Shown piece after piece: positions 27,772 through 57,885 of a DNA stretch of 64,000 bases. The position numbers and the translations under genes were made by a program. Origin of the DNA: Eledone cirrhosa. Its lineage: Eukaryota. The stretch lies in assembly GCA_964016885.1 (NCBI GenBank), contig OZ024756.1, positions 43,214,001-43,278,000 of the forward strand. The letters run 5' to 3'. The notes beneath the pieces were generated by a model. That model was not told where the DNA came from, ran no database searches, and worked only from the letters and a program-made list of their open reading frames with translations. How positions within the stretch are numbered: the first letter of the stretch is position 1; every line of letters starts with the position of its first letter.

Positions 27772-28098
27772 TTTTTACAGACTTTGGTGGGGATTTACCC
27801 ATACGTGTGGCACATTGAAAATTTGTTGCATCTTCGCAATTAGGGTTATTTTTCCAACACTGATACTCTCCATTCCATCGCTTATTTGCTGGTATTTTAC
27901 AGTCAAAACCAGGTGTAACTAGTCCTCTCTGAAATACTTTTGTATCTTTGTCGTAATTCAATAATAAAACCTGAGTTCCATTTCGTAGGAGTTTCAACAC
28001 ATTTAGCCTAGTTAAGTCACCATTTACCTTACATGTTATATTTATTCTAGCTGATGATCCAACTTGAAATACGGGTGTTATAGATTTGATATATATAT
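27772..28098 (-). CDS. Gene 2 exon 4: V-like immunoglobulin domain (copy A), 327 bp, phase 1-1
   Basis: Acceptor ctcctcttccatattttatataCAG at 28101-28099 and donor GTAAGT at 27771-27766. Open frame IYIKSITPVFQVGSSARINITCKVNGDLTRLNVLKLLRNG...CEDATNFQCATRMGKSPPKSVK, with a B-strand Cys and an F-strand D-x-x-x-F-x-C. Paralog at 44533-44898. Confidence 0.85.
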
Positions 28099-28419
28099 CT
28101 GTATATAAAATATGGAAGAGGAGAAAATGTTTAGACAAAGATTTATTTAAAAAATAACATATATAATGGCAGGTAGAGAAATCTAAGACGGAGAAGACAT
28201 CAATAATAGAAAAAGGAGAGAAATACAGTTGTGAATGATAGAAGAATAATAATAATAAGAAGAAGAAGAAGAAGAAGCATGGAAACATGAATTAGTATGT
28301 ATTTCAAACATAAACATATCTCACATGGAAACATACAATCATGCATATATACAAACATGTATTGATAGAGGCAGACATATATTTAAAAATATGGAATCTC
28401 TCTCATCTAATATGCCCAA

Positions 28420-28600
28420 TCTCAATTTTTTCCAATTCCAACCCACCCGTCCCCTCAGTCTATCTTATTTCTCATTCTTTCTTCTGATGAAGGACTAGCG
28501 TCCGAAACGTTAAGACCCTCTTCCTGCTATATCAAGCGTTAACCTAATATATCCCTTCCATATACTGTACCAATTGTGTGGTTATTTCTGTTTAACTTTT
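28420..28600 (+). mobile_element. Penelope-like element terminal-repeat fragment carrying a hammerhead motif
   Basis: Reverse-complement homolog at 47419-47595. Contains CTGATGA-A-GGAC-TAGC-GTCC-GAAAC and ends in a (CATA)/(TA)n microsatellite. Family assignment rests on the known PLE-hammerhead association. Confidence 0.6.
28480..28515 (+). ncRNA. Candidate minimal type I hammerhead ribozyme
   Basis: TCTT-CTGATGA-A-GGAC(TAGC)GTCC-GAAAC-GTT-AAGA: core boxes, perfect 4-bp stem II, stem I TCTT/AAGA, and palindromic AACGTT in place of stem III. Confidence 0.6.
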
Positions 28601-28642
28601 ACATACATACATATATATATATATATATATATATATATATAT

Positions 28643-29316
28643 ACAATATATTTAGAAACACACAGATACATGCGGACACACACATATATACATGAATGCA
28701 TCCGCACCTAACTGTGAGTTAAGGGTGCCAACTTCACCGATGTTGCTCAATGAATGACTGGGACAGACCAATTCAGTTGAACCAGACTGAACCAGTATCA
28801 GAGTTAAAAATACATTATGAAGAGAGAAGAAACATTTAGATATAATTAGTAATAAAATGTATCATACCTAAACTGCTTCTAAATTCAACGAGTACGTAGT
28901 TTCGTGGCATAAACAAAAACAATATATCATAAAGATATAGAGTCCTTGCGAGGTCTGCCGACTTAACAAGAGGATACCTCATTTTACTAGTCTCAAGAAC
29001 GCGTCTACACGACGTGAGAAAGAATCCCAAAAGGCGGAGGGGGAGATAGTCACGCGATATAACGGTCGAGAAACAGAGCTAAGCCTCCTATAACCCCGAA
29101 GAAAATACCACGGAGGCGGAGGGGGTATTTATATCGAAGCCGTAGAAGAGGTGGTGAAGGAGGCGAGAAGTATGAGTAATGGAAGCTTTCCAGCTGTCCC
29201 CACACTTCAAAGATTGCTCGACCAGAGGGAGTTATTAACAATATATTTAGAAACACACAGATACATGTGGACACACACATATATACATGAATGCATCCGC
29301 ACCCAACTGTGAGTTA
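28643..29316. repeat. 79-bp direct repeats (28643-28721, 29238-29316) flanking a ~516-bp unique insert, embedded in (TA)n
   Basis: The two copies differ at 2 positions. The whole block is absent from the paralogous intron (57424-57510). Confidence 0.85.
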
Positions 29317-29425
29317 TATATATATATATATATATATATATATATATATATATATATATATATATATATATATATATATGTATATACACAGAAATGTAAT
29401 ACATAAAAGAAAATAATTTGCTCAC

Positions 29426-29740
29426 TTTTATATGTAAGGAAGACTACAAAGTCAAGTTTCATATTCAATACTGAACAGGTGATGGTTATATTGGGGTAGT
29501 CTTCAATTGTTACGTTGTAGTAAAACTGTGACTCTAATGAAACATAACATTTGTTAATTTTTGGAACATTCACAGATTTTAGACTGACTTCTGTTTCGTT
29601 ACTTCCATGTGTTACACTCCATTTAAACAGGACATTCTCTTCAGAATTTGGGACAAAATTTAAATGACATCTGAAGGTAGATATCTGGTTAATTTTGTGG
29701 TTCTTAGTGTCAGACGTCAGATCTTTCAGAGCTGATTTCA
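29426..29740 (-). CDS. Gene 2 exon 3: C-type immunoglobulin domain (copy B), 315 bp, phase 1-1
   Basis: Acceptor ttttatcttttCAG at 29743-29741 and donor GTGAG at 29425-29421. Reads KSALKDLTSD...STFRCHLNF...LFKWSV...NKCYVSLES...NITITCSVLNMKLDFVVFLTYK, with Ig C...W...C spacing. Same-length paralog at 57571-57885. Confidence 0.87.
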
Positions 29741-29859
29741 CTGAAAAGATAAAATGTAAATCTTAGTAAAATAAATAATGAAATGAAACCTTGGCTGCTT
29801 TCATTGATGCAAACAACTAAAATATTGAATGTGGAGGTTGCTTCTGATAGGACACTCTG

Positions 29860-56088: not shown

Positions 56089-56188
56089 CTAATTAAAAAA
56101 CTGTAGTTATATTTATATTAAATTTATCTGAAATCATTACAGCTTGTTAGAGAAAAATATTTAAATCTGAAAGTTGTATATTACTAAC

Positions 56189-56303
56189 CTGTTGACTCCT
56201 TTAACTGGTAAATAACAAAGAACTAAATAAAAAAAGACAAGTACGTTAAATGCTATAACTCCAAGGTTGATACCAGCAATAGTTCCACGACTTGATTCAC
56301 CAG
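56189..56303 (-). CDS. Gene 1 transmembrane exon (T-GESSRGTIAGINLGVIAFNVLVFFYLVLCYLPVKGVNR), phase 1-2
   Basis: Acceptor ctcctgttttctatcttgaTAG at 56306-56304 and donor AG|GTTAGT at 56188-56183. About 23 hydrophobic residues, in frame with the C exon at 57571. Confidence 0.78.
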
Positions 56304-56352
56304 CTATCAAGATAGAAAACAGGAGCAATATGTTTATTTCTAATATAGCCAC

Positions 56353-56650
56353 ATGATTTCAAATTTGGTGGGAGGGTTATAGTTGATTATATGAACCCCA
56401 GTATTTCACTGGTACTTTATTTTATCAATCCCAGAAAGGTGAAAAACCAAGTTGTCCTCAACAGGATTTAAAGTCAGAAAGTATAGAAGCAGGATAAATA
56501 CCACAAAGCATTTTGTCCAACGTTCTAACAACAGAAATAATAATAATTTCTAACATTTTAAATAATTTTTTATACAAGGCCAACAATATAGAGGAAGAGG
56601 AAAATCTATTTTCAACCCCAATATTTAACTGGTACTTTATTTTATTAATC
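56353..56650 (-). mobile_element. Two diverged SINE fragments (~56353-56530 and ~56570-56650)
   Basis: ACCCCAGTATTTCACTGGTACTTTATTTTATCAATCCCAGAAAGG core in the first; a truncated ACCCCAATATTTAACTGGTACTTTATTTTAT copy in the second. Confidence 0.65.
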
Positions 56651-56829
56651 ACAGCTTTGACACTACGGACATCTCATCAGAATGTCTCAAGAACTAATCA
56701 CCGGACTGATTTTATGGGGGCAAAACTAAACGGCAAGAGACCCAAGTGTAGACACCTAGCAAGATGTTTGGATAACATCCATGAGCTCAGCTGGTCTCAC
56801 TTGGAGATCCAGCCAAATCAGTTGGAGAT

Positions 56830-57115
56830 AGTGTGTGCTGGGTATTTTTGTTACGACACCTACATGACCAATTTACAGTGTGGATTGGGTACTTTTGGTC
56901 GTTGCTCCTACACGACCACTTACAGTGTGGGCTGAGAGCTTTTGTTGGGACACCTACATGACCACTTTACAGTGTGGGCTGGGAGCTTTTGTTGGGACAC
57001 CTATATGACCACTTTACAGTGTGGGCTGGGTGCCTTTTACTAGGCACCAAAACACTCAACTGCCAGTTTGGACTGGGCGCGTTTCGTTGTGACACCTATA
57101 TGACAACTTTACACC
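56830..57115. repeat. ~47-bp tandem repeat (~6 diverged copies); single related unit at ~45340-45385
   Basis: GACACCTACATGACCACTTTACAGTGTGGGCTGGG units with CCTA landmark at 56859, 56907, 56953, 57000 and 57095. Confidence 0.8.
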
Positions 57116-57570
57116 ATAGACGTGGGTCTAAGGTGAGACCTTAATTGTGTCAGTGATAATGAAGGTGGTAGAGTGGTTACAATGATGATGATGATGAACA
57201 TGGTTGTAGTGGCAGTCATAGTGATAGAAGTTAAACTGATCAAGATTATGAAATATAAATCCAAACACAAACACAGCAGTTCAGAAATATGTACACACTT
57301 AATCAAATATATGAATAATTATGTATTTTAAACATATACATACCTCACATGGAAACATACAATCATGCATATATACACACATGCATGTATTGATAGAGGC
57401 AGACATGTATATAAAAATATGGAGTGATGCAGTGACATGTGTATATATATATATATATATATATATATATATATATATATATATATATATATATATATAT
57501 ATATATATGTGTGTGTGTGTGTGTGTATACACACACAAATGTAATACATAAAAGAAAATGATTTGCTTAC

Positions 57571-57885
57571 TTTTATCTTTAATGTAGACTACAAAGTCAA
57601 GTTTCATTTTCAATACTGAACAGGTGATGGCTATATCGGGGTAGTCTGCAATTGTTACGTTGTAGTCAAACTGTGACTCTAATGAAACATAACAGTTGTT
57701 AGTTTTTGGAACATTCACAGTTTCTCGACTGACTTCTGTTTCGTTACTTCCATGTGTTACACTCCATTTAAACAGGACAATCTCTTCAGAATTTGGGACA
57801 AAATTTAAATGACATCTGAAGGTAGATATCTGGTTAATTTTGTGGTTCTTAGTGTCAGACGTCAGATCTTTCATATAAGATTTAG
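57571..57885 (-). CDS. Gene 1 C-type immunoglobulin domain exon (copy B'), 315 bp, phase 1-1
   Basis: Acceptor ttttatattttCAG at 57888-57886 and donor GTAAGC at 57570-57565. Reads KSYMKDLTSD...FRCHLNF...FKWSV...NNCYVSLES...AITCSVLKMKLDFVVYIKDK. Confidence 0.87.

Follow-up and report, generated by a model that had tools for sequence, protein, structure and literature searches.

The window analysed here (64,000 nucleotides of Eledone cirrhosa contig OZ024756.1, positions 43,214,001 to 43,278,000 of the forward strand) holds parts of two genes, E and F, from an octopod tandem cluster of 13 gene units. The cluster spans 1.15 Mb and is absent from the rest of the E. cirrhosa genome. Its units are built as a signal peptide (SP), one to three pairs of V and C immunoglobulin (Ig)-like domains and a transmembrane (TM) segment, SP-(V-C)1-3-TM, and the products are predicted to be cell-surface proteins with Ig folds. 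To judge from the exon sequences, the outer V and C domains diverge faster than neutral, with dN/dS of about 2-3. By analogy with CEACAMs, though without homology to them, the family may consist of receptors plus decoys in an arms race with ligands of pathogens or parasites; we give this reading a probability of about 0.5.

All of the exons lie on the minus strand. Gene F begins with a 121-nt signal-peptide exon (47045-47165), which is the same letter for letter in six of the 11 genes compared and has a homologue in the N-terminal part of O. bimaculoides LOC106878948. V exon 1 (44533-44898; 366 nt, five Cys) starts with an in-frame 42-nt internal duplication, common to the first V exon of gene E, and is followed by C exon 1 (29426-29740; 315 nt, phase 1-1) and V exon 2 (27772-28098; 327 nt, phase 1-1), whose model is an Ig V domain. 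Gene E contributes its last C-type Ig-like exon (57571-57885; 315 nt, phase 1-1, three Cys), whose V partner lies 117 kb upstream, outside the window, and a derived TM exon (56189-56303; 115 nt, phase 1-2). These six main exons are all open and all have GT donors; AG acceptors are present at the five internal ones, and the SP, V and C exons end in phase 1.

The earlier note, made from the letters of the window alone, had proposed these GT-AG exons, and their coordinates are borne out, as is the one-domain-per-exon, phase 1-1 structure of the V and C exons that it took as the hallmark of the Ig superfamily. The two genes are indeed head-to-tail and 7.2 kb apart, measured from the stop codon of gene E (54374-54372) to the ATG of gene F (47165). 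Its tandem cluster and modular (V-C)n build also hold, with n = 1-3, and the paralogue count along the scaffold that it suggested gives 17 V and 16 C copies on the window's own contig. Because of these copies, and of matches to annotated Octopus proteins, the exons are beyond chance. Haplotype duplication was weighed as the origin of the copies; genes B to F1 are treated as paralogues, since they lie in a single gap-free stretch of 431 kb and differ mostly at non-synonymous sites. Three of the 13 units are broken; in D, E and F, all nine V and C exons beyond the first module, and the remainder, are open with intact splice sites.

Nine exons had been said to join in frame, and here the six main ones stand while two micro-exons assigned to gene E are unsupported. 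No coordinates had been given for them, and candidates near 56088-56063 and 54960 were tested instead. The doubtful 26-nt candidate (56063-56088) is interrupted by an in-frame stop when read in the phase of the ancestral paralogues, and its donor is lost in two of eight aligned genes; the 23-nt candidate near 54960 sits inside a 390-bp insert that is peculiar to gene E and copied elsewhere in the cluster. The TM exon, which ends in phase 2, would join the terminal exon directly at 54393. This predicted terminal coding exon (54372-54393, up to the stop), entered in phase 2, the ancestral frame, encodes six residues, for a predicted post-TM tail of about 13 residues; the splice between the two exons was not seen in reads. 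A Thr/Asn/Tyr-rich open frame that follows the stop was discarded as a possible long tail, since translation in the ancestral frame would end before reaching it. The TM exon itself carries two Ile-to-Asn changes, a frame-shifting T7 run and, in the ancestral frame, a TGG-to-TAG stop, and its best 19-residue hydropathy is 2.45, compared with 2.5-3.5 in canonical paralogues.

Three kinds of C-terminus can be distinguished in the cluster. Genes I, K and M have a full TM exon and two cytoplasmic exons, the first of which is also present in A; genes B, C, D and E have a TM segment with a stub tail; and genes F, G and H have a stop within the TM exon that leaves a hydrophobic end. From their sequence, the stop-truncated products of F, G and H are predicted to be GPI-anchored or secreted, and the T7/T8/T9 run lengths in the TM exons could include assembly errors. 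The subgroup of gene E has lost the ancestral cytoplasmic exon. Gene F likely ends 495 kb away, beyond an assembly gap, in a stop-truncated exon resembling a GPI signal. The proposed ending of TM and short tail fits gene E but likely not gene F. Reading the predicted tails and TM exons by eye, we found no ITIM, ITAM or charged TM residue; a single Tyr with acidic surroundings occurs in the predicted tail of gene K. No conserved in-frame exon that could encode a stalk or Fn3-like region between C and TM was found among the six introns listed of 11, and no fibrinogen or chitin-binding domain lies between C and TM in the Eledone cluster.

The earlier note also described the genes as buried among satellite arrays. 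The arrays are present, but they are no bystander: cluster satellite totals 771 kb, all of it within V-C introns of the cluster. In the window, a 24-bp satellite array (approximately 31361-43600) occupies part of the 14.8-kb V1-C1 intron of gene F; positions 1-26850 are the start of a 493-kb array that fills the intron of gene F from V2 to the next C exon (C17:42,746,449) and has a 200-N assembly gap at 18445-18644; and 59751-64000 is the end of a 116-kb array in the second V-C intron of gene E. This satellite is confined to a single class of intron within a single gene family, with introns reaching about 495 kb.

Models of the two domain types support the proposed Ig-superfamily fold, with V modelled as an Ig V domain and C as an Ig-like sandwich. 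The V model (pLDDT 70.5) has V topology including the C' and C'' strands. Its 50 listed matches from a set of 48,161 chains all come from antibodies, TCRs or related entries that contain IgV domains (best Z 9.8, rmsd 2.6, 96 aligned), and V domains head the Foldseek and VIA results. C22 and C95, modelled in strands 18-25 and 91-97, are invariant in 24/24 sequences; the strand-C Trp is absent, with an aliphatic residue in its place in 16/16 own V exons. The D-x-A/G-x-Y-x-C motif ahead of the F cysteine is present with D89 nearly invariant, and its Tyr, kept in older paralogues and Octopus, is Phe in the window's V copies. None of the 24 family sequences matches Pfam V-set or passes any Pfam Ig threshold, and PF00047 gives weak matches in three of them (best E 0.0015). 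The C model (pLDDT 90) is a seven-strand sandwich with C24, W40 and C88 invariant in 15/15 sequences; its structural matches include a bacterial Ig-like domain (Z 13.2, the best), PECAM-1 D2 (Z 11.1) and VCAM-1 D2 (Z 10.4). An Atlas model of an O. vulgaris homologue resembles tapasin/CADM-type V+C proteins (TM 0.62-0.70), and Atlas feature neighbours include unnamed mollusc clusters. Prediction of a V-domain homodimer scored 0.07.

Searching 1.84 billion proteins with the C exon returned annotated Octopus proteins at E values from 1.6e-12 to 5e-5. Single V exons as queries found no homologues, and the family was reached through the C exon search and then a mixed alignment. Homologues are LOC106878948, LOC106878952, LOC106878954, LOC106882738 and LOC106883640 in O. 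bimaculoides, LOC115229977 in O. sinensis, and CAI9716300.1, CAI9737148.1, CAI9737158.1, CAI9737159.1 and CAI9737727.1 in O. vulgaris; several sit together on a single chromosome-length contig per species. One of the seven C-exon matches, P0004, is repeat-like and was dropped as spurious, and P0005, an unnamed fragment, was left out of the trees. The SP and TM exons match the N-terminus and TM of the homologues, which share the type of signal peptide, the five-Cys V and the three-Cys C, and the TM of gene A is 80% identical to that of CAI9716300.1. They differ in that identity is about 24-48%, there are no one-to-one orthologues, they fall on the opposite side of the tree, and most have another hydrophobic C-terminus: relatives are TM-tailed (P0003) or tailless and hydrophobic-ended (P0006, P0007, P0009, P0010, P0012, P0014), and the C-terminal exon of the tailless forms has no match in the Eledone cluster. 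No fibrinogen or chitin-binding domain was found in seven whole homologues (Pfam) or in eight partly overlapping ones in alignment A4. In this search of limited sensitivity, the matches named no protein from squid, cuttlefish, nautilus or another mollusc.

As the earlier note expected, there is no named gene and no one-to-one match to a well-characterised gene; only unnamed Octopus proteins matched. Its concern that annotation could miss the family applies in part, as relatives are annotated in three Octopus genomes, under 'uncharacterized' or 'Ig-like domain-containing'. The suggestion of a possibly undescribed family agrees with the literature searched, which yielded no description of this Ig cluster family and no papers for the accession terms of the homologues; five homologue ids are absent from the readable supplements of PMC9712504.

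Over 45 pairs, which are not independent, dN exceeds dS in V (0.128 and 0.066; dN>dS in 45/45) and in C (0.109 and 0.044; 42/45), and the maximum likelihood omega is 2.14 for V and 3.10 for C. Selection is equally strong in C and V. The window's C exon differs from its nearest paralogue by nine non-synonymous and no synonymous changes. For all 16 V exons, omega = 1 is not rejected by GY (2dL 1.7), with 2dL of 9.6 under MGK; and C exon divergence (0.091) shows no excess over short intron flanks (0.073 and 0.100). In the tree, a 100/99 branch sets the 16 own V copies apart as a whole from the 10 Octopus V domains. The Eledone expansion looks independent, homologues were named only in Octopus species, and the proposed lineage-specific diversification is supported. 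Signal-exon and intron identities hint at gene conversion in the cluster, whereas mosaicism tested at informative sites did not reach significance (V p 0.062, C p 0.151).

Spliced reads had been proposed as a check. No RNA run is among the listed sequencing runs that contain the sequence, but the RNA-like public run X4 has a contig compatible with splicing in a paralogue; the window's own exons were not seen spliced. This contig, 25, fits a spliced V-C junction of gene B. The V alleles recognised in the run also fit gene B, which has satellite-free introns. The window's own genes are not seen expressed in X4, because the listed contigs have non-window letters at V positions 44674-44785. No SP-V joint is among the 15 joints listed (477 more exist). 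When 12 V exons of the assembly were compared with the contig of record 26, none matched it, a hint of allelic variation.

In the receptor-plus-decoy reading, the older tailed members would be receptors bound by a parasite or microbe. Duplication, module gain and TM-exon mutation would then yield non-signalling copies that soak up ligand, and unequal crossing-over within the satellite-bearing V-C introns may help to alter module and gene number. A different role for the same introns would be that satellite expansion silenced or crippled the window genes and D-H, leaving them as young decaying duplicates while only compact paralogues work. The damaged TM exons, lost cytoplasmic exon and satellite-bearing introns of 109-495 kb would fit, as would the assignment of the X4 alleles to gene B; but V and C exons are open with intact splice sites in D, E, F and others, omega is 2-3 instead of 1, and the T7 frameshift of gene E skirts the TAG and returns to the ancestral terminal frame, which together make decay highly improbable. 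A code for neural or sensory wiring, comparable to Dpr/DIP, Beat/Side or nectin-like molecules, is very unlikely. Wiring molecules usually retain orthologues and purifying selection, and the family has only about 24-48% identity to Octopus proteins, no one-to-one orthologues and omega >1; very long introns are nevertheless common in neural genes, and the V+C2 build resembles CADM, nectin and fasciclin-3. Cephalopod neural adhesion genes have also expanded in tandem arrays, as reported in part of PMC9068888.

Selection on both V and C would suit reproductive recognition proteins, at the surface of sperm, eggs, spermatophores or the oviducal gland, that diversify through sexual selection or the isolation of species, and gamete-surface proteins typically show dN/dS above 1, lineage-specific turnover and GPI-like Ig forms. 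Diversification among 13 paralogues of one genome goes beyond species differences, and we consider this role quite unlikely. Recognition of self and non-self within the species, with polymorphic V domains binding matching copies in trans on skin, suckers or haemocytes as in Hydractinia Alr, is rather unlikely: octopuses are solitary and are not known to fuse, and the Eledone family has neither the Fn3-like region nor the ITAM/ITIM tails. On its side are the hint of allelic variation from record 26, the chemical skin-sucker mechanism cited in PMC8988249, and the Hydractinia allorecognition complex itself, described in the relevant part of PMC9546547 as clustered, diverged, non-canonical V-set IgSF genes. 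It is also conceivable, if unlikely, that the cluster is a polymorphic identity locus of octopuses, a variable Ig receptor system that arose within cephalopods. Unequal crossing-over through the cluster-specific satellite would then add, remove and re-pair V-C modules, and receptor repertoires would differ between individuals; such a locus would supply the missing molecular basis of immune or skin-level self/non-self discrimination in cephalopods. In the available part of a 2026 review (PMC13428168), molluscan recognition diversity means FREPs, and cephalopods appear only for the blood-forming organ. Because the laboratory octopuses O. bimaculoides and O. vulgaris have homologues of this positively selected Ig cluster, the cephalopod self/non-self question becomes directly testable.

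Among known systems, fish NITRs, KIR/LILR and amphioxus VCBPs are diversified Ig-domain recognition families and, with snail FREPs/VIgLs, resemble the Eledone family in this; the latter differs in that it lacks fibrinogen, lectin and chitin-binding domains as well as an ITIM or charged TM residue. CADM/nectin, tapasin and fasciclin-3 are the nearest predicted two-domain V+C2 structures, but such proteins are conserved, low-copy genes and have no sequence match to the family. Hydractinia Alr genes are likewise clustered invertebrate IgSF genes for single-pass membrane proteins, with a non-canonical V-set largely missed by Pfam and, in the part of PMC9546547 on V domains, the strand-C Trp likewise missing. 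Alr proteins have I-set domains, an Fn3-like region and ITAM/ITIM tails, none of which occurs in the Eledone family, and often lack the core Cys pair, whereas the Eledone family keeps this pair and has extra Cys. With the mammalian CEACAM/PSG family the cluster shares tandem arrangement, V followed by C-type domains, lineage-specific turnover, high dN/dS and, in Eledone by prediction only, GPI-anchored or secreted members arising through TM-exon stops and deletions. The repeat unit is V-C in Eledone instead of one N domain plus C pairs, and the predicted Eledone tails have no ITIM/ITAM. There is no CEACAM sequence match at E up to 1 among 24 PDB sequences, and the homologue searches gave Octopus names only and no CEACAM. 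By a section heading in PMC11646289, CEACAM diversification is confined to the N exons, whereas the Eledone cluster shows selection in C too. Passages of PMC2832619 and PMC11646289 trace GPI-anchored CEACAMs to stops and deletions in TM exons and read them as pathogen decoys, and the Eledone cluster seems to repeat this route independently, from tailed receptor to tailless anchor through mutation of the TM exon.

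Two genes lie partly in the window, both on the minus strand: E with its 3' end and the next, F, with its 5' part. The six exons that the earlier note had located there hold up, with open frames, GT-AG ends and phase 1 for the signal-peptide, V and C exons; the gene model for E works without the two micro-exons it had added, for which the candidate exons are weak. The tandem cluster of paralogues that it proposed does exist, as 13 units along contig OZ024756.1 (C17). Searches of the whole 3.0-Gb genome with four queries returned at least 17, at least 16, at least 31 and at least 33 matches, every one at C17:42.56-43.72 Mb, and the family was mapped in 1.25 Mb fetched around the cluster. 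This region contains 12 signal, 17 V, 17 C and 13 transmembrane (TM) exon copies, in units A (plus strand) and B to M (minus strand). The modules are VC in A, C, G, I, K, L and M, VCVC in B, E and F, and VCVCVC in D. Three of the 13 units are broken: J has a V exon with a frameshift and a stop and has no C or TM exon, H has no V and a frameshifted C, and C is frameshifted in M.

The signal exon of gene B was not found in the mapped 1.25 Mb and may lie in the adjoining assembly gap (C17:43,664,041-43,664,240). This gap coincides exactly with the head-to-head junction of inverted gene A and gene B, cuts the signal exon of A, and may instead hide more genes. In the window, the signal exon (47045-47165) encodes 40 residues, with Met codons in a row and another ATG in the same frame; genes I, J, K and M differ in how long the Met/Val run is and in the 3' end of the exon.

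Within the window, V with its flank is duplicated (26800-28246 and 43561-45048, 93%), as is C with its flank (29315-31800 and 57444-60171, ~91%), which suggests that the second module of gene F arose by internal tandem duplication. The dimer of a 24-bp satellite unit has 3,635 exact matches genome-wide, all inside the 1.25 Mb and on one strand. The satellite accounts for 771 of the 1,250 kb, split over seven arrays that all lie within V-to-C introns: ~1 kb in gene G, ~5 and 109 kb in D, ~34 and 116 kb in E, and ~13 and 493 kb in F. No family sequence was found between the second V of gene F and the C exon at 42,746,449; this intron spans a 200-N gap, and the V-C link rests on the scaffold.

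Further inserts and repeats lie close to the genes. Between E and F, a 3.5-kb insert (window 49800-53300) has no long match in the 1.25 Mb among the matches listed; it contains an 890-bp direct repeat (50995-51881 and 52409-53266, 94%), tandem repeats of 401, 93 and 37 bp and no ORF above 170 codons, and is possibly a non-autonomous mobile element. A 390-bp element in the last intron of gene E (window 54816-55208) has copies in opposite orientation at C17:42,516,150 (99%) and 42,657,768 (96%), and is a recently active insertion. An AAC/ACC-rich repeat, likely 3' UTR, directly follows the gene E stop codon (window 54210-54360); in gene H (C17:42,713,500-42,715,400) it has grown to ~1.9 kb, with three open frames (Thr/Pro, Asn/Thr and Gln/His).

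Both domains are predicted to have Ig folds, although neither is called by a Pfam search. The model from the V alignment (pLDDT 70.5) matches Ig V domains (best Z 9.8, rmsd 2.6, 96 aligned), in agreement with the earlier note. V retains the B and F cysteines and an Asp six residues ahead of the latter, is without the C-strand Trp, and has three additional invariant cysteines. The C model (pLDDT 90.2) forms a sandwich of seven strands, in which Cys, Trp and Cys are invariant and one additional Cys is present; because bacterial Ig-like domains match best (Z 13.2), above PECAM-1 D2 (11.1) and VCAM-1 D2 (10.4), C is no more than likely to be C2-like. Together, the five V and three C cysteines suggest one V-C interdomain disulfide bond. 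The Atlas connects the V exon with V-set clusters, and an O. vulgaris homologue with V+C proteins, tapasin and CADM among them.

Among 1.84 billion representative proteins, the C exon finds seven: five named Octopus proteins, an unnamed fragment and one hit set aside as spurious. A profile search gives eight, six of them new; none has a gene name, and their source species are O. bimaculoides, O. vulgaris and O. sinensis. Named homologues are Octopus proteins only (~24-48% identity). These are annotated proteins, and their homologous parts confirm the signal and TM exons that had been predicted in the window. In midpoint-rooted trees built without the V of J or the damaged C copies of H and M, all 16 Eledone V domains lie on one side of a branch with 100/99 support and 10 Octopus V domains on the other; C splits likewise (91/84). 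This fits expansions that took place separately in each lineage, or concerted evolution within each. Modules are shuffled in Octopus as well: O. vulgaris CAI9737148.1 has the order V-C-C, with histidine-rich C domains, and a second homologue (P0002) has C-V.

Amino-acid changes are in excess. For V, the 10 closest exons give a mean dN of 0.128 and a mean dS of 0.066, with dN>dS in 45/45 pairs and a codon bootstrap of pN/pS of 1.13-3.34; the 10 closest C exons give 0.109, 0.044, 42/45 and 1.44-5.24. Maximum-likelihood omega is 2.14 (V) and 3.10 (C) in these close sets, and 1.42 (all 16 V) and 2.29 (15 C) in the full sets. Against omega = 1, 2dL for the close V and C sets is 9.7 and 15.4 (MGK) or 4.2 and 13.4 (GY), and only 1.7 for all V (GY). 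V exons diverge by 10.1%, versus 1.5% for 120 downstream and 6.7% for 140 upstream intron bases, a contrast absent for C. Of 11 genes, 6 share an identical signal exon, and that of gene L, whose V is just ~44% identical, differs by a single base. This suggests homogenised 5' ends, but a mosaicism test of V and C was not significant.

The C-termini also differ. In older members the TM is canonical, mostly with basic residues after it. A cytoplasmic exon of 46-49 nt comes next (present in K, I and M; A has a shorter copy and L a damaged one), and with the phase-2 terminal exon the predicted tails reach roughly 70-90 residues. The terminal exon predicted for gene K (C17:42,640,300-42,640,650) is acidic, with one Tyr following acidic residues and a Thr-Val-Val end that resembles a class I PDZ ligand motif; K is the best candidate for a signalling member. 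No copy of the cytoplasmic exon was found in genes B to H. The TM exon of D, E, F, G, H and the second copy in B is derived, with two Ile-to-Asn changes, TGG-to-TAG and a run of 7, 8 or 9 T. The T9 form ends at the TAG. In T8 (F, G), the stop comes a few codons beyond that point, after a hydrophobic end. T7 (D, E) bypasses the stop, keeps the hydrophobic stretch and enters the terminal exon in the ancestral frame, leaving ~13 residues. From these frames, the predicted product of gene E is a membrane protein with almost no tail, and that of gene F is GPI-anchored or secreted. Six Octopus relatives also have a tailless hydrophobic C-terminus, but by different sequence.

Four public runs (X1-X4), none annotated as RNA, were compared with window 44440-47320. 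X1-X3 cover 30/30 bins, introns as well as exons, and behave as DNA would. X4, a single sample with no stated tissue of origin, behaves like RNA: 22/30 bins are covered, with depth at the V exon and none in eight non-exon bins. Its contig 25 (651 nt) fits the window only at 44613-44522, with six differing letters, three of which match the second V of gene B exactly. Read on past V into its intron, gene B would show 0 mismatches over 93 bases, whereas the first 11 bases of the gene B C exon account for exactly three further mismatches, followed by divergence. Judging from these mismatches rather than from the letters past the joint, we infer a spliced V-C transcript with splice sites homologous to those in the window; the C exon of gene E starts identically. 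Another X4 contig ends exactly at the exon boundary. Contig 26 has no match among the 12 assembly V copies compared, and the window's own V1 allele is not seen among the X4 matches listed.

We give a probability of about 0.5 to a receptor-plus-decoy system, with a predicted surface location, that would be driven by pathogen or parasite pressure. The analogy is with CEACAMs, whose GPI forms were made repeatedly by TM-exon stops and deletions (passages of PMC2832619) and are interpreted as decoys under diversifying selection (PMC11646289). Self-recognition resembling that of Alr is unlikely, even with the Alr comparison in part of PMC9546547 and the skin-sucker mechanism cited in part of PMC8988249 in its favor. 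A reproductive role seems somewhat less probable still, neural wiring is decidedly doubtful, and decay of the window's subgroup strikes us as the least plausible.

The earlier note recognized no named gene, and indeed the Octopus relatives are annotated without a name. A literature search, with most subscription journals beyond its reach, found no description of the family, and the word 'immunoglobulin' is absent from the main text, as far as available, of the coleoid genome paper (PMC9068888). Clusters of diversified Ig receptors are of a known kind; on the features tested, this one belongs to none of CEACAM, Alr, FREP, VCBP, NITR and KIR.
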